Of a stretch of DNA of 64,000 nucleotides, positions 6,101 to 21,255 are shown in pieces. Below the pieces are notes generated by a model, which worked only from the letters and a program-made list of their open reading frames with translations, was not told where the DNA came from and did not search any database. Numbering within the stretch: position 1 is the first letter of the stretch; each line of letters starts with the position of its first letter. This stretch comes from Scenedesmus sp. PABB004 (lineage: Eukaryota), in the NCBI GenBank assembly GCA_014905635.1, contig JABVCE010000015.1, positions 434,001 through 498,000 of the forward strand. Direction: 5' to 3'. Made by a program: the position numbers and the translations under genes.

Positions 6101-9100
6101 CCCTGCCTGCCGGGGCAGACCGTCGCGCCGGGCGGCGGCGACAACACGACCTGCTACATGTGCGCCGCGCCGTACTACAGTTTTAGTGCATACCCCGCGG
6201 ACGGCGCAAAGGCCTTCCCCGCCGACACGCGGTCCACCGTCTACGGCGCGGCGCTGCTCAACATCACCGGCGTCGCCGCCGGCGCAGGCGGCGCGGGCAC
6301 GGGCGCGTGCCAGCCCTGCCCGCCGCGCGGCGTGTGCGTCGCGGGCATGGTCGTGCCGTCGCAGGGCTGCTGGCAGGCGCACCCGCGCAGCACGACCATC
6401 CGCGCGTGCCCCCACGCGGCGGCGTGCACGCGCGACGCGGCCGCGGTGGCCAACCTGCAGGGCCTGCAGTGCGCCAACCGGCGCCACGTGTCGCCGGCCG
6501 CCGTTGACCCGCGGCCCTTTGGCGCGCTGCAGTGCGCACAAGGCTACGCGGGGCCATTCTGCGCCTCCTGCTATCGCCCCGGGCGCAACGGCTGGATCTC
6601 GGCGCGCCAGCTCGACGCGCAGCGCGCGACCGCCGGCCGCCAGGCGGCGCAGGGCTTCACCGTCGCCGCCGACGGCGCCGTCCTCACGCGCCTGCCGCCC
6701 GGCTTTGACGTCGCCGCGTCGTTCGGCAGCGCGGCGCAGCGCTGCGTGCGCTGCCCGCACCCGGTCGTTGCGTGGCTGCGCTTCCTGCTCGCGCGCGTCG
6801 TCGACATGCTGTTCGTGGCCCTGCTCGCGCTGCTCTGGATGGGCCTCGGCTGGCTGTACGAGAGCCCTGCCGAGACGATGCTGAAGCGCCTCAAGAAGCA
6901 CAAGCACCACGGCCGCACCTACACCTTCCGCACGACCGTCGGCGTGCCCGGCATGGTCGCGCGCCTGCGCAGCCTCGGCGGGGCCCGCCGCGGCGGCGCC
7001 GCCACCACGGCGGCCGCGGCGGCGGCGGTCGCGGCGGCCGACGGCGTCGCCAAGGCGCCGCCGGCGCCGGCGCCGCGCCGCCGGCTCGGCCTCGGCCTGC
7101 TGCGCCGCCGCGACGCCCCGGCGGCGGGCGCCGCGGGCGGCGCGAGCGCCCCGAGCGACTCGTCGGCGGCGCGCCTGGGCACGATCGAGTCGGACGGCAA
7201 GAGCGACGGCGGCGGGCCCCCTCCTCCAAGCAGGACGTGAGCTCCGCGTCCGCGCTGCTCCCCGACGGCGCGCCCAGCGGCGCGAGCGCGGGCGCGCTCG
7301 CGGTGCCCGGCGGCACGGGCGGCGGCGCCGGCGCGCCCGCGGGCGCGCCGCGCGGCGGCAGCCGGCGCTGGGGCCGCAGCGCGAGCGCCGGCCGGCGCGC
7401 CGCCAAGCTGGCGTCCGCCTCGGCCAAGGTCGCCGACGCGCCGTCGCCGTTTGCGGTCGGGCTGGCGGCGTGGCCGCCGGTCGCGCGCTCCGGCCCCTCC
7501 GCCGCCGGCTCGCTGGCGTCGGGCGCCAGCGGCTCGCAGCAGCGCTACAACGGGGCGTTCCACGATCTCAACCGCAGCCTCAGCCTGCGCTGGTCCTCCG
7601 CGGTCAAGCTCGTCAGCCAGCTCGCCGCGACCTCGGCCGCCGCCAACCGCCGCGCCGGCGCCGGCGCGGCGGCCGGCGGCGCCCCGCGGCGCGGCGCCGC
7701 GGCGCAGCGCCTCGCCGCGCGCAAGGCGGCGCTCCTGCTCATGGCGGTGCGCCACCTGGCGTGCATCGTCCAGGTGCGGCGGCGGCGGCGGCGGGCGGCG
7801 GCGGGGGCAGCGGCGCGCGAGCTGCCGGCGGGCTGCCCGAGCGCCTCTGCCGTGCGCGCCCGACCGCCCCCGCCGCCCGCCACCCGCCCGACCACCCCGC
7901 CGCCCGCCCATCCGCCGCTGCCGTCGCGCGCAGGCCCTGCTGGACGGCGCGCAGATCGCCGCGATCATACTGGCGCAGGACCTCATGTGGCTGCTGCCCG
8001 ACTGGGTCGCGGCGGGGCTCTCCGCCGCGCTGTGGACGCAGGCGACGACGTGGGAGTGGGTGGCGATTGATTGCCTCATTCCTGGCGGCAGCCGCGTCTC
8101 CGGGCCGGCGCTGCAGGCGTGGATCGTGCTCCTGCTGCCGCGTGAGCGCCGGCGCCGCCGCCGCTGGCACCAGCGCGGCGCGAAGCTCGCGGCGCGGCCG
8201 GGGGGCCTGCCGCGTTGGCGCGCCTGCAGCAAACGCCCCGCCCGCGCCGCCGCCGCCGCCGCCACCCGCGGCCGCAGTGCTCTACACCGCGGCGCTGCTG
8301 CCGATCGTGCTGGGCGTCAAGGCCTTTTTCGAAAAGTACATGACGAGCGGCACCGACCTGGGGGCCGACGACGGCGCGGCGAGCGCGTCGTCGGTCGGCC
8401 GCGCCGCGAGCTTCGCGTCGGCGCCGTCCGGCAGCTACTCCCGGCCGCCGGCCGCTGCCCACAAGCCCGGCTACGAGCCGGCGGGCGGCGGCGGCGGGAG
8501 CGCGTCGCGGCGCGCGCTGTCGCCGCCGGCGCTCGCGCAGCAGGAGGCCAGCCTCTCGCGCGCGGCCAGCGGCAAGGACAGCGGCGTGCGCGGCTGGCTG
8601 CGCTCGCTGAGCTCGCTGGGGTCGACGCGCAGCAGCCCCTTTGTCGCGAGCGCCGCCGCGGCGGCGGTGGCAGACGCCGACGCCGAGGCGGCCGGCGGCG
8701 CCGCGCGCGCCGCCGCCGGCAACGGCGCGGCGCCGACCGGCAGCGGCCTGCTGCCCTCGGGGTCGCACCTCGACGACCTGCCGCTGCCGCCGGTCGTGCT
8801 GCCCGCCGACGCGGCGGCGCCGCTGCCTGGCAAGCCGCAGCGCTCCGCCGACAGCACCGCGAGCAGCGCCACCGCCGCGCCGCGCAGCCGGCGCGGCTGG
8901 GTGCGGCGCTTCTGGCCCGAGCGCAGCAGCACCTGGGTGCTGCTCACGTCGCTGGGCGTGGCGAGCATGAGCTACTGCTTTGCCATCTACGCACGCACAG
9001 TGGTCGGCGCGTTCACCTGCATGCGCCTCGCCGCGCCGCCGCACGTGCCCGGCGAGATCGACCTGCGCGGCACCTTCTGGGTGGACGACCTGCAGATGCG

Positions 9101-11161
9101 GGTGCGCGCCGCGCGCACGCGCCGCCGCCTGCGCGCTGCCCGCGTGCCGCCGCCGCCGCCGCCCGCGCGCTCACGCGCCCGCGCGCGCCGCCGCCGCGCG
9201 CGCCGCCGCCTCGCGCGCCGCCGCCGCGCGCGCTCACGCGCCGCCCGCCGCCGCGCGTGCTTCGCGCGCCGCCGCAGTGCTGGCGCGGGCAGCACATCGG
9301 CGTCGTGGTCATGGCCATCTTCATTGGCATGCCCATGCTGCTCGGCTACTGGTGGCTGCTGCTCGTGCTGGCGTGGCCGCGCGAGCGGCGCCGCGCGGCG
9401 GGGCCGGCCGGCGGCCAGCACTACGCCGGCCACGCCGGCCACCACCACCACCACCACCACGCGGGCGAGCACAAGCACGCGCGCCGCGACGCCGTGATCT
9501 ACACGAGCAGCAGCGGCGAGTGGAGCGAGAGCGAGGAGGAGACGGAGCACCACCTCGCGCTGCCGGGCGGCGGCGCCGACTACCGCGCGTGGGCCAAGAC
9601 GCACACGACGTCGATGCCGCCGCTCCGCGCCGGCGAGGCGAGGCCCAAGGTCCGCGCCCTCTCCATGGCCGCGCCCCGCATCGCCGCCATCGGCAGCTTC
9701 TCGGCCAGCAGCCCGCCGGGCGCGGGCGCGCCGCTCGCCTCGGCCGGCTGGGACCACGAGCCGGCGCCGCCGCCGGCGCCGGCGTCGTCGGCGTCGCCCG
9801 CGCCCGGCGCCGGCTGGGAGGCCCCGAGCCCTGGGCACGACGGCCAGCGGCAGCGGCCGGGCCAGCTGCAGCCGATCGGCAGTGGCGAGAGCCTGGGCGG
9901 CGAGCCGCAGCCGTCGCCCGGCAGCGGCGGCGGCAGCAGTGGCAGCCCGCACTGGGGCGCCTCCGGCGCGCCGCTCAGCGGCGCCGGCAGCCTCGGCTGG
10001 GGCGGGCCCAGCGCGCAGCTCAGCTTGCCGCCGCAGTCGAGCGGCTGGCTCAGCAACGGCAGCACGGGCACGCACCCGCCGCCGCCGGCGAGCAGCCTGC
10101 CTCCGCAGTCGAGCGGCTGGCTCAGCGGCGGTAGCGCGGGCACGCACCCGCCGCCGCCGGCGAGCAGCCTGCCGCCGCAGTCGAGCGGCTGGCTCAGCGG
10201 CAGCAGCGCGGGCACGCACCCGCCGCCGCCGGCAAGCAGCCTGCCGCCGCAGTCGAGCGATTGGGTCAGCGGCGGCAGCCCCCAGGGGCCGCCGCCGGCC
10301 GCCGGCGCTGGCTGGGAGGCGCCCCAGGCGTTTGCTCCCGGCGCCGCGTCGCCGCCGCCGCCGTCGCCCCAGCGCGGCGTCGCGTCGCCCAGGGAGGCGC
10401 GCGGCGGGCCGGCCAGGGCGACGCGCAGTGGGCCGCCCAAAGAGACGCGCGGCGACGAGGTGCCCACCGAGCTTCCCCCCGGCGCCGCGCGGCCCGGCGC
10501 GACGCCGCCGCCGCCGCCCGGCAGCGACAGCGGCAGCAGCACGCACGACGACCTCGGCCTGCACTCGCTGCGCCTGCGCGTCACCGCGTGGCTCGGCCGC
10601 GTCGCGACCGCGCTCGGCATCACCTGGCTGATGGCCCGCCTCGAGCGCAACGTGCGCCACACGCAGCTCTACACCGACGCCGTCGGCGTGAGCGGCATGC
10701 GGTGCGCGGGGCTCGCCGTGTGGAACGTGCGCTACCGCTGGTGGTGGCTCCCGGGCAAGGAGCTGGTCAAGTTTGCGGTCATCTTTATCGCGACGTGCAG
10801 CAGCATGCGCCAGCCGCCGCAGGTGCAGGCGCTGCTGGTGCTGATGGCGGTGTTCATGGCCGCCGCGGTGACGTGGCAGCTGCAGGTCGGCCGCACGACG
10901 AGCATGGAGCGCCTGCTCTTCACGCAGGGCGCGTGGCTGCAGCTGCTCGGTGTCATGGTGCTGGTGCTCACGCTGCCCAACCTGCACTACGCCGCGTACG
11001 GCGGCGTGCTGCTCGGCGTCGTCGCCGCGCTCGCGCTGCAGGCCGCGCTCGTGCTCGCGCTGCTCGTGTGGCGCTGCGTGTCGTCGGGGCACGAGCTCTC
11101 CGGGCTCGCGGGCTTTGAGCTCGGCGGCGCGCACCACGGCCACCACCCCACGCTGGCGTGA
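181..11161 (+). CDS. Large membrane protein: signal peptide, polymorphic-membrane-protein (Pmp)-like right-handed beta-helix repeats, Cys-rich stalk, multi-pass TM domain; 17 exons
   Basis: ATG 181 gives MPRPALRALALALVLAAGAAA (signal peptide). 16 introns splice in frame (first 256-438; GC donors at 2931 and 3262). Recurrent FxxNxA..GGA(I/L/V) motifs over ~1200-5100. Cys-rich CQPCP..C..GY.GPFCASC..CVRCP at ~6100-6760. Hydrophobic helices at ~6770-6850, 7940-8320, 8930-9020, 9300-9375 and 10740-11080. Stop at 11161. Needs a 1-nt correction at 7217-7221. Confidence 0.8.
10021..10280 (+). repeat. 72-bp coding tandem repeat, ~3.5 copies (SLPPQSSGWLSGGSAGTHPPPPAS)
   Basis: Units start at 10021, 10093, 10165 and 10237 and are near-identical at DNA level. 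Confidence 0.9.
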
Positions 11162-12095: not shown

Positions 12096-15000
12096 ATGAC
12101 GTCGCCGCGACGCAACGCGGCCGGGGCGTGGCTGCTGCTGGCCGCCGCGGCCGCGCTCGCGCAGGAGCAGCATGGCGGTCCCCGTCCCGCCGCTGGGGCC
12201 GGCGCCGCGGCCTGCCGGACCGGCTATGTGTCAAGCGGCATCAGCTGCGGTGAGCGTCGCGCGCTGGCCGCGGGCGCGGCCGCAGCGGCGGCGCGGATGG
12301 GGCGCCGAAGCAGCCCGGCGCCGCGGGCGCCGCCGCCGGCGCCGCCGCCGCATGCGGCGGCCACCCCCCCCCCCCCTCCCCCCGCCGTGCGGGCGCGGGG
12401 CAGTGGGCGGCACGCTGCAGGCGGCGATGGGAGGGGCAGCAGCGCGCGGTGCCGCGCCGCGCGGCGCCCGGCCGCGCGGCCGAGCAGCAGGCGGCGGGCT
12501 GCCGGTGACGCCGCGGCGCGAAGCCCACCTCGCGCCGCCTGACCGCTGCCGGCGCCGCCCGACCGCCGCCGCGTCGTCCCGCAGCGTGCGCGCCGGGCTG
12601 GGGCTCGCACGTGCCCGGCTGGCCCAACGCCACCTACCCGACGCTCCCGCCGACCTGCGCGCTGTTCCGGCCGGGCAAGGACAAGCTGTACAAGGCGGGC
12701 ACGGTCTTCCCGCCCGCCGGCGCGGGCAAGGGCAAGTGCTTCTGCTTCGCCTGCCCGCCCGGCTACACCTCGGCCGGCGGGCAGCTGAGCCGGGCGGACG
12801 CGGCGTGCAAGGCGGCGCCGACGCTGAGCCTGGCGGCGACGTACACCATCCAGACGAGCGGCGCGCTGTGCGACGCCAAGGTCAGCGCGGCGGTGGGCGC
12901 CAAGCTGCTCGCCGCGCTCAAGCGGGCGACCAAGGTCGACGCGCAGCTGGCGCCTGCGAGCTGCCCCGACTCGCCGGTGAGCCAGCGGGGGCGCCCGCGC
13001 GCGCGGCGCATGCGGCCCGCGACGCGTGCACCCTCGGGTCGGCCGCACCGGCCCAACACCGCGCTCGCCTGCCACCGCCGCGCCACAGGCCAGCAGCACC
13101 ACGCCGGCGAGGCACCAGCTGGTGCTGCGGCTGTCGTACACCGGCACGGACGCGCAGAAGCAGCTCAAGCAGTTCCGCACCGTGGCGCGCAAGATCAACG
13201 CACCGCCCAGCAAGACGGCCGGCCCGTGCGCGTTTGGCGTGTGCGATGCCGTGACCAAGGCCTCCCGTGGCGCCGCGAGCGCGACCGCCGCTGCAGCTGA
13301 GGTTGTGTCGTCGGCCAGCAGCTCGCCCGGCGGCGCACCGCCGCCATCTCCAAACTCCTCAGCAGGTGACACGCGTCTGCTCACTGTGCCCTGCCAGCCA
13401 TTGCCAGCGCCCGGGCTGTGGACACCCTCCGCGCAGCGCTCACCCGCCGCTGCCGCTGCACTCGCCCGGACACAGGCTGCCAAGACACCGTCTGCGAGTC
13501 CAGGGCTTGCCAGACCAGCGCCTGCGACACGTCGAGCGGCGTGTGCAGCTACACCAACCTCGCTGACGGCACCGCGTGCAGCGACGGCGTCGTCAGCGGA
13601 CAGTGCAAGGCCGGCACGTGCGCGGGGCTCAACACCAACATCGAGGCGGCCGCGCAGGGCGTGACGGAGCCCGTGATCTTCAAGGCGCGCTTTGCCGGCG
13701 GCGCGAGCCTCGGCAAGGCGGTGACGCTGAACGGCTTGCGCAACGGCAGCGACGTCGGTGAGGTGCTCGGCACGCTCTATGACGACGGCAGCCGCCTGCA
13801 CGAGGACCGCTGTGCCGGCGACGGCGTCTTCTCCAACGTCATCCTCCTCACCTTTGCTGAGAGCGACCAGCCCGTTTACAAGGCGTTCTATGTCTCCCTG
13901 CTCGGCGCGGCCGACAAGAGCCTGCCCGTGAGCATCGCGGCCGTCACGACGCGCATCGACACGCTGCTGGAGCTGTTCCCGACCGAGCAGCTCGTCACCA
14001 CGGCGCAGGCCAAGGTCGCGGAACTGGTCGACGGCGGGGCGAGCCCGGAGCAGGCCATCGCGGCGATCTATGACCTTCTCATCGAGTACAGCGCGGTCGG
14101 CGGCGGCGGGCGGCGCCGCGCGGCTGCGGCTGCGGTGCCGCAGGGGGACGCAAGCGTCAACCTGACCGCCATTTTGTCGCGCGTGGACGCGTCGACGGTC
14201 ACGCGCACCACGGAGCGGCGCGTGGAGTTCAAGACGCTCGAGGGCTTCCCCTGCATGGTCCTCGCACCCACGGAGTACGACCGGTCGATCAGCGGCGGCA
14301 AGTGCAGCGGCGCCGCTGGTGCACGCCGCCGGCTGCAGCGCAGCCACCAGCAGCAGCTGTCGGCGCCGGTCGGCGCTGCTGCAGCAGCCGCTGGCGGCAG
14401 CGCCCGCGCCGGCAGCCGCGGGGGTGTGGGCGTCGCTGCGCAGCTGGAGCTCCTGCGTGAGGCCGCGGCAGCGTCGCCCACCGCCAGCGGCAGCGGCGCT
14501 GGCGGCGAGCAGGAGCAGGCAGAGCCTGCGCCCGGGCCGGCGCCCGACTATGCGAGCCTCGCGCGCGGCGCCGTCAGCAGCTGGCGGCGGCTGCAGCAGG
14601 CGCAGCAGTGCCCGACGTCCAAAGGCGAGGTGCTGGTGCTGGCGCCGTTCCTTCTTGAGAACGAGTGCTCCGGCTTCGGTGACGAGGCGGCCGACGTGGC
14701 CGCGCTCTACAAGGCGGCCGGCTACGACGTGACGTTCAAGTGCAACGACGCCGCCCTGTGCCCGGCCGGCCCGCCGGCGCTGGAGGACTTCACGGGCTGG
14801 TCCAAGTACGTGGCAGTTGTGGTGTCCAGCCGCGGCGACGACGACGCCGACGGCAACAACCCCGTGCTGCTCACGCGGGCGCCCATCGACCTCGATCGCT
14901 ACCAGCTGGACTGGCAGGCGGGGCGCATCGTGCTCTCAGCTGATGGCCACGCGGCGCTGCGGCCCAGCTGGTTTGAAAAGTACCGCAACGCGGCCGGCGC

Positions 15001-18000
15001 CGACCCCGCGCGCACTGTCGTGTTTTTCGCCTCGGATCGCTCTGCAATCAGCCCGCCAGCATCGGCACGCGATGGCGTCGGGGAGAAGGGCTTTGCCGGC
15101 GCGTTCTGGTCCATGGACGGCGCCGCCGGCTACGCGGGCTTCACGGGCTACCTCTCTCGCAGCTTCGACGCGCCCTCGCCCGGCGTGGCGATGGCGCAGA
15201 GCCTGCTGGCGGGCAGGTCCGTGGACAGCTACGTCGGCACGGACGGCAAGGACAAGCTGACGGGCGCCGCGTTCCGCTCGTACCCCTACCGCCGCACGTC
15301 GACGCTGCTGGACCGCTGTGCGTTCAAGTGCGACCGCGTGACGTGCAGCCCGCCCCAGTGCGCGCTGAGCGAGGTCATCTGCAACACCCTCACCGGCTCG
15401 TGCGACATCAGCTGCTGCAACAGGAAGGACGGCGACTCATGCCGCCTGCGTGGGCGCCCCAGCACGTGCAGTGGCGGGAAGTGTGTGGGTGAGTAGTGGG
15501 CGGCTGGAGACTGGGCGGCCCCGCTGCGCTCAGTGTGCGCTCTGCAGCCGGCTGGCCGCGCCGTTGCGGTTGCATTGCTGAGCCGTGTGCCGCCGCCTCT
15601 ACCGCTGCCACGCTTGCGCCGCAGACAACTGCGCCAGCGCGCTGTGCTCCGCGCCGCCCTGCCAGGCGTTGGTGGGCGAGCAGGGCGCGATCTGTGACCC
15701 CCTTACCGGCCGCTGCCCCACCACCAACCTGCCCGACGGCACCAGCTGCAGCTTCCAGGGCGGCCGCGGGAGCTGCGTGGCGGGCGCCTGCAAGGGTGAG
15801 CGCCCGGGCGGCCCCGGCGGCGCCAGGCGCGCCGGCGCGCGGCGCCTGTCACAGCGGCGCAAGCTGCATTGCCGTCCCTCACCCCGCTGCGCCCTGCGGC
15901 GCCTTTGCAGGCCTGCTGCGGCTCTTCTACAGGCTGCGCGGCCCCGCCGACAGCTTCCCGGACGCTCTCGACAGCCCCGCGCTGTCCGCGTTTGCCGCCG
16001 GCGTGCATCGGTCGCTCGACCTGCCGCCGTCGTACCCCACGTCAAGCATCAGCGTGTCGGTGCTGCAGCCGCTGCTGGCGCGGGCGGCGCGCGGCCTGCG
16101 GGCGGCGCCCGCGGCGGACACGACCGCGCGGCTGACCGCGGAGCTGCTGGACGACCCACCGCTGCCGCAAAGCATGAACTTCAGGGTTCTGGGCTCCGCG
16201 GCGAAGCTGCAGCTCGGCGACCCGTTTGGCCCCGGGCTGACGGTCGAGCGCACGGACGAGAGCGGCAACGTGCTCGTAGCCTCGCGCGACGACGCGGGTG
16301 CGGTGACCCTGGGCGCGGCACGTCGAGCGTGCGGTGCGGCGGCTCGCCCCGCTCGCCGGGCCGCTGAGCCGCCCGCGCGGCGCGCGGCTGCAGATCTGTG
16401 TGCCTACAAGGAGTGCCCCGCAAAGACCGCGTGCACCACGCCATCGTGCGTGCGCAGCACTGGGGCCTGCAGTTACGCCCCCGCCAACGACGGCGCCGCC
16501 TGCAGCGCCGCTGGCGGCGTTGGTGGCGCCAGCACCAACGGCACCTGCAGCGTTGGCGTGTGTGTGCTACCGGGTAAGGCGCTGCATGGGCAGCTGCAGG
16601 AAGGGCGGTGCCCTGCTCTGCATGCGCCGCCGACCTGCGTGCCATGCCCGCCCTCCGCACCGCAGATGACCCCTGCGCAACCAGCCCCTGCTCTCAGGTG
16701 GCCAACGCCGTGCCCGGCACCTGCGTGCGCACGGGCGACAACACGACGCTGGCCGCCTCGTTCCGCTGCTCCTGCGCTGCGGGCTTCAGCTGGGTCAATG
16801 ACACCTGCACGGGTGCGAAGGGCCGCAGTGATGCTGGGCGGCACCTGGCGGCTGGGGTGGTCGCATGCCGTGCTGACCCAGCCGTGCTGACCAGGCCGCT
16901 CGTCTGCGCCGCCCTCCAACCCAGACACCGACGGTTGCGCGGGCGAGCCTTGCGCCAGCATTGCAGGGGCTGTGCCCGGCAGCTGCACGGACAGGCGGGC
17001 CCCGAAGACCGGCTTTCGGTGCAACTGCACGGCAGGGCTGGCCTGGGCGGCCAACGCAACGAGCGCCGCCTGCGTGGGTGAGTGCGAGCGGGCAGCCGCC
17101 AGGGCTGCGATGCGATGCCAGTGCACACGGCGGCCTGCGACAGCACGCTCACCACATGCCGCCCGCTGCGCGCACAGATGTTGATGGATGCCGCGGCAAC
17201 CCCTGCGCGACCATCCCTGGCGCGCTGGCGGACAGCTGCCAGGACCTGCCAGCTCCACAGACCGGCTTTGCCTGCCGCTGCAACGCAACCCTCGCATGGC
17301 AGGCGGCCAACGCCACCTGCGTCGGTGAGCCGGGTGTGCAGAGCGTCCGTTGTGCTCGCAGACACACGTGTGGCGCACCCGCGCATCTCACCCCAATCGC
17401 CCGGCATGCCTGCACCGCATCACACACGCAGATGCTCGCAGCTGCCGCAGCAACCCCTGTGCCAACTTCACCGGAACTGTTCCCGGCAGCTGCGTTGAGA
17501 GGCCTGGCACTCAGGCTGGCTTTGCCTGCAACTGCACGGCGGGGCTGGCCTGGGCGGCCAACGCAACGAGCACCGCCTGCGTGGGTGAGTGCGAGCGGGC
17601 AACCGCCTGCTGCGCTGCGATGCCAGTGCACACGGCGGCCTGCGACAGCACGCTCACCACGTGCCGCCCGCTGCGCGCACAGATGCTGACGGATGCCGCG
17701 GCAACCCCTGCGCGACCATCCCTGGCGCGCTGGCGGACAGCTGCGAGGACCTGCCGGCCCCGCAGACCGGCTTTGCCTGCCGCTGCAACGCCAGTCTCGC
17801 GTGGCAGGCGGCCAGCGCCACCTGCGTCGGTGAGTCGCTAGTCGGCCCGGCGCGCTGGCACACTAGGCAAGCTCACCGCAGCGCAGCGCTCAGCTGTGTC
17901 TAAATGTGCGCGCGCTGCATCGCCGCAGACCGCTGCGCCAACGTCACGTGCGCCAGCACCGAGTGCAAACGGGGCAGCTGCAACGCCACGACAGGCGCCT

Positions 18001-21000
18001 GCGCGTCTGCCAGCATCAACGAGAACGGCGCCTGCACGCCCCCGCAGGGCGCGCGCAGGTCAGGGGGCCGCCCGGCCGCCATCGGCGGCCAGGGCGTGTG
18101 CCGAGCTGGCGTGTGCACGGGTGAGCGCCGGCGGGGTTGGCTCTGTGGTGGCGCGCCTGGCCAGCAGCCAGGGGCACGCGCAGACGGCTTAGACGGCCCA
18201 GCGCAGCGCGTTGCTGACGCGCCCGTCCTGCCTCCCCCGCACCCACAGACCTGTGCGCCAACGTGGTGTGTGCGGCGGTCGACTGCCGCACGGGCGCCTG
18301 CAGCCCCACCAACGGCAGCTGCACGTACGCCGACCTGGCCTACGGCACGCCCTGCAGCCTCGCAGGCCAAGCCGGCTCATGCGCCTTTGGCAGCTGCGTG
18401 CCGTTCCCGCCGCCGGGTGAGTGCCCCGGCCTTTGGCGGGCGCGACGGCTGCCGTCAGAGGTGTCGCGCCTCACGGCTGCGTGCGCGCTCGCCCGCCTCC
18501 GCGCGCAGGCCCGTGTGCCGGCGTGACCTGCGACGTGCCGACCAGCGTATGCCGGATCCCGGGCGGCACCTGCAGCTCAGGCACCTGCAGCTTCACGTCC
18601 CGGCCGACGGGCTCGGGCTGCGGCGCGGGCGACGGGAGCTACGGGACCTGCACGGCCGGCGGCGCCTGCCAAGGTGCGGCAGCGCGCGTCAGTCAAGGCG
18701 GGGGCTGCGCCTGTGCCTGCGCCGCGGGCGGTGGCTGGGCGGCTGGGCAGCTGGCCGCCGGCGCGTTGGACAAGGCACGGGGCTGTGCCTGCGCCTGCGC
18801 TGCGGGCCGACTGGGCTGCTGGCCGCCAGCACAGCGGCGCCGCGCCCAGCGCTCGCCGCCGCCGCCGCCGCCGCGCGGCGCAGCCACGGTGATCGACCGC
18901 GTGTGCATCACCTCGCCCGCGGCGTACACGCCGCACGCGGTCGCCGTGGGCGCAAGCGGCGCGGTGTACTTCACGACGCGCGACAACAAGGTCGGCCGGG
19001 TGCTCTCCATTGCGCCGAGCGGGACTCCGGGCGTCGCGTCTGCGGCCGTTCAAATTCTGTACGACGCGATGCTGAGCAACCTCAGCACGCCCGACTACTC
19101 GCTGCCGGGGCTCGCCGTGGACGAGGCCGCGGGCCGGGCGTACGTGGTGCACAGGAGTGAGTCCGCGCCGCGCGGCGCCGCGCGGCGCCCCGGCCGCCGC
19201 GCCCGGCCGCGCCGTGGCTCACGGCTGCGCGGCGCCGCCGCGGCGCGCCCACTTGCCCGCCCGCCGCCGCCCGCGGCAGGCTCGCACTGCGTGCTCGCGG
19301 TCAACACCAGCGGCGCCGACCCCGCCGCCGCGGACGTGCTGCTCGGCGCCTGCGACCCAAGCTCGCCGTGCTCGCCCGGGGCCTCGCCGGCGGTGTGCCT
19401 CGGGAGCGACAACTTTACGGCGCCGGCCAGCGTGCGGCTCTACGCGCCGTCGGCGGTCGCGCTCGGCCCGCCCGGCGGCGGCGCCGCGGTGCTGTACATC
19501 TCAGACACTGGGCTTGGCTGCGTGCGCGAGCTGGACCTCGCCCGCGGCGTGCGCACGATCTACGGTGAGTGCGATGTGACGGTCGGCGTCGCGCCCGTCG
19601 CCGGCAGCGACCCCGCGCCGGGGGCCGCCTTCTCCTGGTGGGTCGCCACCGGCACGGGCGCGCTCGAATACTTCACCGGCCCCGCCGGCGCGACGACGGG
19701 CAACAACGCGACTGAGCTGTGGGCGTGGGCGTCCGACGGCAACCTTCCGCTCTGGGGCGCGGCCGACGGCAGTCAGCTGCGCGTCTCGTCGACCGCGCGC
19801 CTCCCCGGCGGCGGCGCGCTCTTGCTCGGCAGCGACGCGGCGGTGCACAACGACACCTTCCCCACACGCGCGCACACGCTGCTGGTCACGCCGACGCCCG
19901 GCGACGACGCGGGCGCCTACTTTGCAGTCCCCCTCGGCGGCGGCTCAGCGTCAGGCGGGCCCTCGACCCGGTGCTCACGCGCGTCGGCGGCCTCGCCGTT
20001 GCCAACGGCACGCTCTGGGTCGCGGACGGCGACAACGACGACGGCGCGCCAGCCTCGACCGTGCCCGGCCAGTTCACGCTGCTCCGCCTCGACGCGCTGC
20101 CGGCGGTGCCGGCCTACTTTGCGCCCGGCCTGGTCTTTGCGGGCGCGCGGCACACGTGCGGCGTGCCCGCGCGCGGCGCGCTCGCCGCGCCGCCGCTGCC
20201 GCCCGTGTGCTGGGGCGCCGGCGGCGCCGCGGTGCTGACGCCGCCCAGCCCGGTGAGCTGGGCTTACTACGACCGCTCGGGCTTTGCCGGCGGGCAGCAC
20301 ACCTGCATGCGGGATACCGCGCCGTCATACCGGTGCTGGGTGAGCGCGCGGCGCGCGGCGCGCTGCGGCTGCGTCGCGCGCGCCCCGCCGCGCCACCGCG
20401 CCGCTGCGCCACCTTGCCACCCCACGCACCCCCCCCCCCACCCTCCCCACACACACACACCACCCCACCCACCCACCCCGCGCGCAGGGCGACAACTCCA
20501 CGGGCCAGCTCGCCGTGCCGTCCGCGCTGCAGGGCAACTCGCGGCTCATGGTGCTGGGCGCGTGCGCGGGGCGCTTCCACAGCTGCGTGCTGAGCTCCGC
20601 GTTTGGGGCGAAGCGCCTCGACTGCTGGGGCTGCGAGCCGGGCAACGCGCTGTGCGCGTACGTGGCGGCCAACCCCTCCCTCGCAGCCACGGCGTCGCCG
20701 CAGCTGCTCTGCGGGCCGGGGCACCTCTGCCTCTTCAGCACGGCGGGGACCCTGACCTGCTTCGACGGCTCGGCCGCGGGCTGCGGCGCCAAGTGCGCGC
20801 AGCCGGGCGGCGTCTCCTGGCCGGGCGGCGCCGCGCGCGGCGCGGCGGGGCCGCGGCACACGTGCGCCGTCGACGCCGGCGGCACGCTGCGGTGCTGGCC
20901 GCCCGCGGAGCCGGCCGCCGGCCCGCTGCCGGCCGTGGCGGCCAGCGCGGCCGCGGTCCAGGTCTGCGCCGGCGACGACTTCACGTGCGCGACCTTTGAC

Positions 21001-21255
21001 GCCGGCGTCCAGCCGCTGCAGGCGTCGGCCGTGCTGCGCTGCTGGCCGCCGGGCGTGCTCGCGCTACCTCCGGGCCTCGAGCGCTGGCAGGCCAACGTCA
21101 CGTCCATCACCTGCGGCGCCAGGCACGTGTGCGCGTCCAAGGGCAACGGGCAGACCGTGTGCATCGGCGCCGGCGACGGCTGCGCAGCCGGCGCGTGCAA
21201 CGTGCCCACCGCCGACCGCGCCAAGTGGCCGTTCCGCCCCGACGTCTACCCTTGA
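12096..21255 (+). CDS. Giant secreted Cys-rich mosaic protein (SEA-like, LYDDG/choice-of-anchor-X-like, pseudo clan-CD peptidase, EGF-like repeats, NHL-like propeller, RCC1/BLIP-II-like repeats); 18 exons
   Basis: ATG 12096 gives MTSPRRNAAGAWLLLAAAAALAQ (signal peptide). 17 GT-AG introns, mostly phase 1. EGF-like exons at 16666-17829 (DGCRGNPCA..C.D...GFACRCN). NHL-like PHAVAVGASGAVYFT, GLAVDEAAGRAYVV, PSAVALGP..LYISDTG. RCC1-like AGARHTCG, CAGRFHSCVL, CAGDDFTCA, TCGARHVCA. Stop at 21255 followed by TGTAA. Needs a 1-nt correction at 19960-19962. Confidence 0.75.
17010..17834 (+). repeat. Internal direct duplication of exon-intron-exon block (~17010-17329 vs ~17517-17834)
   Basis: Introns 17078-17177 and 17585-17683 and the following EGF-like exons are nearly identical. 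Confidence 0.9.

Follow-up and report, generated by a model that had tools for sequence, protein, structure and literature searches.

Has a peptidase domain without catalytic residues been kept in a secreted algal protein for another task, is it a structural relic, or does it reflect decay or a sequencing error? The question is raised by a gene in a 64-kb window of high-GC green-algal DNA (the window being the whole stretch analysed, 64,000 nucleotides of the genome of Scenedesmus sp. PABB004). The gene runs on the plus strand from an ATG at 12096 to a TGA ending at 21255 and encodes a protein of about 2,000 residues that carries a probable signal peptide and, in its first half, a domain with the fold of clan-CD cysteine peptidases in which both members of the His-Cys dyad are replaced. 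On balance we favour the reading that this is an old, selected pseudoprotease turned into a non-catalytic binding domain of a secreted surface or wall protein that is processed by a subtilase.

A clan-CD fold without the catalytic dyad

The domain and its decisive sites are the following.

14600..15319, plus strand: clan-CD (CHAT-like) pseudopeptidase domain of 240 residues (P0002), from model, structure search and profile alignment
14681..14686, plus strand: Asp28-Glu29 at the head of helix 1, retained in common with the intact relatives
14831..14833, plus strand: Arg78 (CGC) in place of the catalytic His, from sequence and alignment
15035..15037, plus strand: Asp146 (GAT) in place of the catalytic Cys, from sequence and alignment

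The AlphaFold2 model built from 36 sequences reached a predicted local distance difference test score (pLDDT) of 91 and a predicted template modelling score (pTM) of 0.91. A VIA structure search over 48,161 chains placed clan-CD entries at all of ranks 1–30, 29 of them by title, and with GSU0716 among them, which we take to be clan CD. The best match was a SAVED-CHAT protein (8tl0; Z 14.1, root mean square deviation 3.6, 182 residues aligned), and further matches included DdvA (8rot; Z 12.6), legumain (Z 12.4) and RgpB (4ief; Z 11.7); all 44 Foldseek matches listed were CHAT, caspase, metacaspase or MALT1 entries. Within the modelled domain, the replaced sites come after core strands 3 (residues 72–76) and 4 (139–144), the places where clan-CD dyads sit (PMC4357240). 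An alpha/beta/alpha caspase fold with the dyad sites at the ends of these strands places the domain in clan CD, while Arg78 and Asp146 set it apart from the active cysteine peptidases of that clan.

Profile comparison led to the same sites. Aligned by hhalign to 12 CHAT domains from Planctomycetota-phylum genomes, the family matched the invariant His, Cys and Glu of CHAT with Arg78, Asp146 and Glu29, respectively (E 1.5e-5, probability 80), and an alignment restricted to intact relatives gave E 3.9e-5 and probability 70. The sequence-only reading, whose quoted motifs are all present, had assigned SSRG and ASDRS to the dyad and made the assignment depend on a caspase-like fold and on superposition of the two motifs; since fold and profile alignment are in register, it holds at that level.

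Membership of a named family is a different matter. Pfam and NCBIfam hold no named family for the domain, and PDB sequence searches with it gave chance matches only. The CHAT model PF12770 gave no match to the query at E 1 and 21.1 bits against a cut-off of 24 for the relative P0056, so that the link to CHAT is one of remote homology with the dyad in register. Peptidase_C25 gave no Pfam match and hhalign probabilities of 9 (E 0.0036, C-terminal part only) and 2; an Atlas feature match to a cluster in which 29% of the members are C25 amounts to no more than a lead. Peptidase_C14 (PF00656) gave no match to the query and E values of 0.047 and 0.21, below cut-off, for relatives. By their model cut-offs the domain is thus not a member of CHAT, C25 or C14; of the families originally proposed for comparison, CHAT lies nearer than the gingipains (probability 80 against 9).

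Loss of catalysis in the Asp clade

The two replacement codons had been read correctly and lie in frame within one exon (13476–15488). Five close loci in the same genome share CGC at the His site and carry GAT or GAC at the Cys site, their domains are free of stops with open frames, and the ratio of nonsynonymous to synonymous substitution rates (dN/dS) is below 1 in 10/10 paralogue pairs (range 0.18–0.83; 0.26, 0.42 and 0.49 for the window copy against three diverged paralogues). Six named proteins of Tetradesmus obliquus and one close relative have Ile at the His site and the same Asp at the Cys site. Shared Arg and Asp, open frames, dN/dS below 1 and the Tetradesmus Asp together argue against error and against recent decay. 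With its catalytic residues lost and its sequence conserved under selection, the domain answers to the definition of a pseudopeptidase.

A phmmer search returned 48 proteins, and the relatives were aligned in 59 rows, 36 of which have both His and Cys. The Cys site is Asp in all 15 dead-clade rows that cover it in register (five further rows do not cover it), and the His site varies among R, I, V, L and T. That the Arg codon is one base from CAC is correct as to the codon; a recent hit was not borne out, because other members of the clade have Ile, Val, Leu or Thr there. Members of the clade are only some 40–60% identical, yet Asp28-Glu29 and Asp146 are fixed among them; across the alignment the first residue of the helix-1 pair is D in 49/52 rows and the second is E in 47/54. 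In an unrooted tree of 41 of the 59 rows, from which the two site columns had been dropped and 18 rows (fragments, near-copies and long branches) omitted, the Asp rows (11/41) formed one branch with 100/96 support, and in a 58-row tree the clade (20/58 rows) had 96/97 support. As the Asp rows group without the site columns, the tree indicates that catalysis was lost once, before the lineages of the clade split.

No intact copy was found in the genome itself: own-genome searches, three of them with intact relatives as query, gave seven loci, and 7/7 are without His and Cys (the search ran exon by exon on first-look candidates, and a split distant copy could escape it). Two of the seven, the C1 loci, are far diverged: the His and the Asp-Glu pair are gone and the Cys site holds Leu. 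The C1 locus included in the tree did not join the Asp clade, and its very long branch is unsure in position. These two loci, at 566289–567368 (L028) and 596936–598021 (L029), form an inverted pair about 30 kb apart. Both carry the cassette, their peptidase domain has eroded separately, RxL boxes are absent, and their Cys-rich repeats resemble sushi domains when judged by eye. Weak matches at C9 and C7:985k proved to be unrelated open reading frames, and further weak ones outside the seven loci lay at C38 (E 0.5) and C33 (E 0.9).

Intact relatives and a possible bacterial parent family

Active paralogues had been suspected elsewhere; in other organisms the suspicion was borne out, in the own genome it was not. 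Intact His-Cys forms occur in metagenome-assembled genomes of Planctomycetota and Patescibacteria (6 loci, one ending before the Cys), and in 5/301 genomes of the same phylum as that planctomycete. The bacterial family (L013–L018, L023–L026, P0034, P0050, P0055, P0056, P0059 and P0060) is 31–39% identical to the algal domain over its length (P rows). Its proteins, which combine a choice-of-anchor-X domain with a clan-CD peptidase, follow the algal order of immunoglobulin-like (Ig-like) domain, pro-region, linker and peptidase. They differ in keeping His and Cys, in having neither RxL boxes nor the Cys-x5-Cys loop after strand 2, and in their other N- and C-terminal domains. Several of them share an unnamed C-terminal domain that is also found in the algal-like P0020, P0031 and P0054. 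In the bacterial-type clade, P0052 has independently lost the dyad, with Ala and Pro at the two sites, and at the head of its linker the Gly run is not preceded by a basic residue.

A second intact group shares the Cys-x5-Cys loop with the dead clade. Ten of its open reading frames stop right after the Cys-Arg codons, at the point where the C1 paralogues have a GT-AG intron, which suggests that the group is probably algal. Its sequences found no match in viral contigs, named algal proteins or the Atlas, and one metagenome-contig match was a false hit. In the 41-row tree the 17 bacterial-type rows are separated from the other 24 by a branch with 100/98 support; with the tree unrooted, a bacterial origin of the algal domain is plausible.

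Upstream cassette and linker boxes

What precedes the domain is shared with its relatives, namely an Ig-like domain, whose choice-of-anchor-X motif scores below threshold, followed by a helical hairpin and a meander; the linker behind it carries two short basic boxes.

13625..13948, plus strand: Ig-like beta-sandwich with choice-of-anchor-X motif at 13772–13840, from NF041940 match and structure model
13949..14263, plus strand: helical hairpin and three-strand meander, presumed pro-region, from model and alignments
14324..14338, plus strand: first RxL box, RRRLQ, which opens a low-complexity spacer, from sequence
14585..14599, plus strand: second RxL box, RRLQQ, directly adjoining the domain start, from sequence

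NF041940 (choice-of-anchor X) scored 16.1 bits against a cut-off of 25, which leaves the first segment outside that family, with the motif and the Ig-like fold present; the seven loci of the genome scored 16.8–23.1 bits. The N-terminal model matched generic Ig folds only (Z up to 8.4). The hairpin and meander are conserved in bacterial and algal relatives and may act as a pro-region, and a structure search, in which the helical part was barely covered, gave no match to gingipain prodomains. A counterpart of RRRLQ is present in the paralogues and in Tetradesmus. RRLQQ, noticed from the outset as standing immediately before the domain, is presumably a subtilase site by the precedent of plant pectin methylesterases (PMEs).

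Linker motifs were counted by eye on the 26 of 30 rows printed. An RxL[L/Q/H]-type box occurs in 10/10 dead algal linkers, in eight of which two boxes flank a low-complexity spacer, and in none of the 15 His-bearing linkers nor in the single dead bacterial one. Near the linker head, Lys or Arg followed by Gly, Ser or Ala was seen in 13/15 His-bearing linkers, and likewise in L015, L023–L026, P0059 and P0060; this basic residue is a candidate self-cleavage site.

A proposed path from self-processing protease to binding module

The ancestral cassette would have resembled the intact forms of Planctomycetota and Patescibacteria: an Ig domain, a pro-region, a basic-residue site and an Arg/Lys-directed, probably self-cleaving peptidase. 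For the intact relatives, Arg/Lys-directed self-processing is suggested by analogy with RgpB, whose Asp163 on helix 1 binds the P1 Arg and whose pro-region is autoprocessed at Arg, and with MARTX-CPD, which cleaves itself 30 residues before strand 1 (both PMC4357240). In the algal lineage catalysis would have been lost and RxL[L/Q] boxes gained around the spacer, a secretory host subtilase that cuts at these boxes replacing self-processing. The sequence has the motif of S1P-type subtilase cleavage, an RxL[L/Q] box; processed plant PMEs have RRLL, RKLL, RVLL or RTLL at the junction of inhibitor and catalytic domains (PMC11494411), and Chlamydomonas has an SKI-1/S1P-like subtilase (PMC6313938). 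After the cut, a Cys-rich, NHL- and RCC1-like (propeller-bearing) chain would begin with the dead domain. The domain's former active site, made acidic by Asp28, Glu29 and Asp146, might then bind, without cutting it, a basic peptide that belongs to a partner or to the protein's own linker; the retention of Asp28 in 49/52 rows and the fixation of Asp146 suggest such a pocket, and Asp28 is a candidate S1 acid by analogy with RgpB Asp163. Ligand and proteolytic processing are inferred, and so is the binding role that the sequence-only reading had offered.

Several observations weigh against this reading. Nine of the 10 dead linkers keep Lys or Arg near the head, which blurs the loss of the self-cleavage site, and just 4 of the 15 His-bearing linkers come from algal-like sequences. 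The two C1 paralogues are dead and yet without RxL boxes, and such boxes may be a mere habit of chlorophyte secreted proteins. Glu29 may be structural, since it matches a CHAT-wide invariant residue, and the Asp may be invariant through a single change that was inherited and then retained for folding. The dN/dS values among the other paralogue pairs are 0.58–0.83; third-codon-position GC content (GC3) of the paralogue domains is 0.90–0.98, which probably depresses dS. A frameshift also lies in the window copy, 4.6 kb downstream of the domain.

Alternative explanations

The closest competitor, unlikely though to be taken seriously, is that the domain is purely structural, a stiff spacer or an oligomerisation element in a wall protein, with an empty pocket, in which Asp146 serves local folding, for example with Arg147. 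The tolerance of R, I, V, L and T at the His site is in keeping with this, as are dN/dS values of up to 0.83 and the persistence, as two loci, of a second dead lineage without His, Cys and Asp-Glu; it leaves unaccounted for that Asp28-Glu29 and Asp146 stay fixed across so divergent a clade.

Improbable, by comparison, is a new enzyme in which Asp146 has become a catalytic or metal-binding residue for hydrolysis or transpeptidation at the wall. It would explain why all 15 rows have Asp at the nucleophile position, with a conserved Arg-Ser beside it, and why the acidic loop after the His site is kept, and it would make the domain a clan-CD fold with a non-cysteine mechanism. In its fullest form, to which we likewise give a slender chance, the invariant Asp would be a gain of function and not a scar, acquired after entry from an undescribed bacterial family, with activation passed to a host subtilase. 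The His site has no conserved polar partner, no other candidate general base was identified, and a single origin is enough to explain the invariance of the Asp.

Very improbable is a role as decoy for, or regulator of, an active paralogue from its own family within the cell, after the logic of TbMCA4 with its metacaspase partner or of c-FLIP with caspase-8. Intact relatives exist, and the inactive T. brucei MCA4 interacts with an active metacaspase during release (PMC3220528); but with both residues lacking in all seven own-genome loci that the exon-by-exon search of first-look candidates gave, the proposal of a decoy for an active partner in the same genome is unsupported. A decoy aimed at proteases of associated bacteria would be a variant of the idea. 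Sequencing error or a decaying pseudogene has practically no standing and is largely refuted for the domain, for against the frameshift at 19960–19962 stand 5 paralogues with identical replacements, Tetradesmus proteins that also have the Asp, a near-identical annotated KAF8061111.1 that is full length with Arg and Asp, and dN/dS below 1 in every pair.

Comparison with known systems

Against CHAT proteins (SAVED-CHAT, DdvA, Csx29/craspase and separase), which give the best structure matches and a profile in register over the helix-1 Glu, His and Cys sites, the algal domain stands out by having no Pfam match and no dyad, and no TPR or SAVED partner was seen; DdvA keeps its dyad, H862/C907 (PMC11506125). 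Gingipains (RgpB, and Kgp 4rbm with Z 10.7) are alike in fold, in secreted zymogen logic with an N-terminal pro-region and basic processing sites, and in the helix-1 acid; here again the algal domain lacks the dyad, and both the weak, C-terminal profile match and the missing prodomain match separate the two.

Loss of the dyad from a caspase fold kept under selection has precedents in T. brucei MCA4, c-FLIP-L and the cyanobacterial delta-orthocaspases. c-FLIP-L is a clan-CD pseudopeptidase regulator, and its structure matched the algal domain with Z 9.6. All three are C14-type, which the algal domain is not, and the latter is set in a signal-peptide protein of some 2,000 residues with no active partner found in the genome. 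MCA4 is released and processed (PMC3220528). The dyad replacements listed for cyanobacteria in the accessible part of PMC7475262 are YS, YN, YR, YY, YQ, HP, HG, YC, CY, YG, YH, FS and YA, none of which has Asp at the Cys site. Type-1 plant PMEs are also secreted and have Basic-x-Leu-Leu boxes between pro-region and next domain; their domains are unrelated, and the analogy is one of processing only.

Clan-CD pseudopeptidases are known; of one in a secreted algal protein, and of its putative bacterial parent family, we found no report in the searchable literature, mostly outside subscription papers and supplements, which agrees with the initial impression that the architecture is undescribed in chlorophytes. 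The protein accessions are absent from the literature searched, including the accessible part of the S. obliquus wall proteome (PMC11839794) and one supplement. Intact bacterial, intact algal-like, Asp-type dead and fully eroded dead forms make up a natural series in which the conversion of a protease into a binding module, and a possible replacement of self-processing by host processing, can be studied. In the Scenedesmaceae the proteins form a small expanded extracellular family whose N-terminal cassette is conserved and whose C-terminal repeats vary; its members are candidates for a part in the assembly of the wall, in adhesion or in the recognition of microbes.

Gene layout and neighbouring sequences

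The remaining features of the gene are these.

12096..12161, plus strand: start codon and, by eye, a probable signal peptide with a basic N-terminus, a hydrophobic core and ALA followed by Q
13476..15488, plus strand: large exon with Cys-rich repeat, Ig-like domain, pro-region, linker and dead peptidase domain, from AG/GT borders
15624..21255, plus strand: downstream exons with Cys-rich EGF-like repeats and NHL-like and RCC1-like regions, from tblastn to P0010; stop codon at 21253–21255
19960..19962, plus strand: frameshift with respect to P0010, located in a short run of C, from three-frame translation

The N-terminus looks like a signal peptide, a pattern seen by eye also in KAF8061111.1 (P0010) of the same organism, in line with the earlier description of a secreted protein; no C-terminal membrane anchor was seen in the gene product. 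KAF8061111.1 is the nearest named protein, 96% identical over the large exon (its residues 270–945), and in it the Pfam matches to NHL and RCC1 are weak and below cut-off. Identity to the window gene is 96–100% over residues 58–1003 and 48–71% beyond, which suggests a homogenised cassette with variable tails. Either an assembly indel or a genuine lesion could account for the frameshift; in the second case the C-terminal region of the window copy would lose its last ~390 residues.

An inverted, near-identical twin (L002) lies at C8:419477–420196, about 28 kb before the domain. At 16666–17830 the EGF-like exons are tandemly duplicated with introns that are near-identical too, pointing to a recent internal duplication. 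The gene upstream, at 7241–11161 on the plus strand, encodes several hydrophobic stretches and a repeat of about 23 residues, rich in Pro, Ser, Gly and Trp, that occurs four times.

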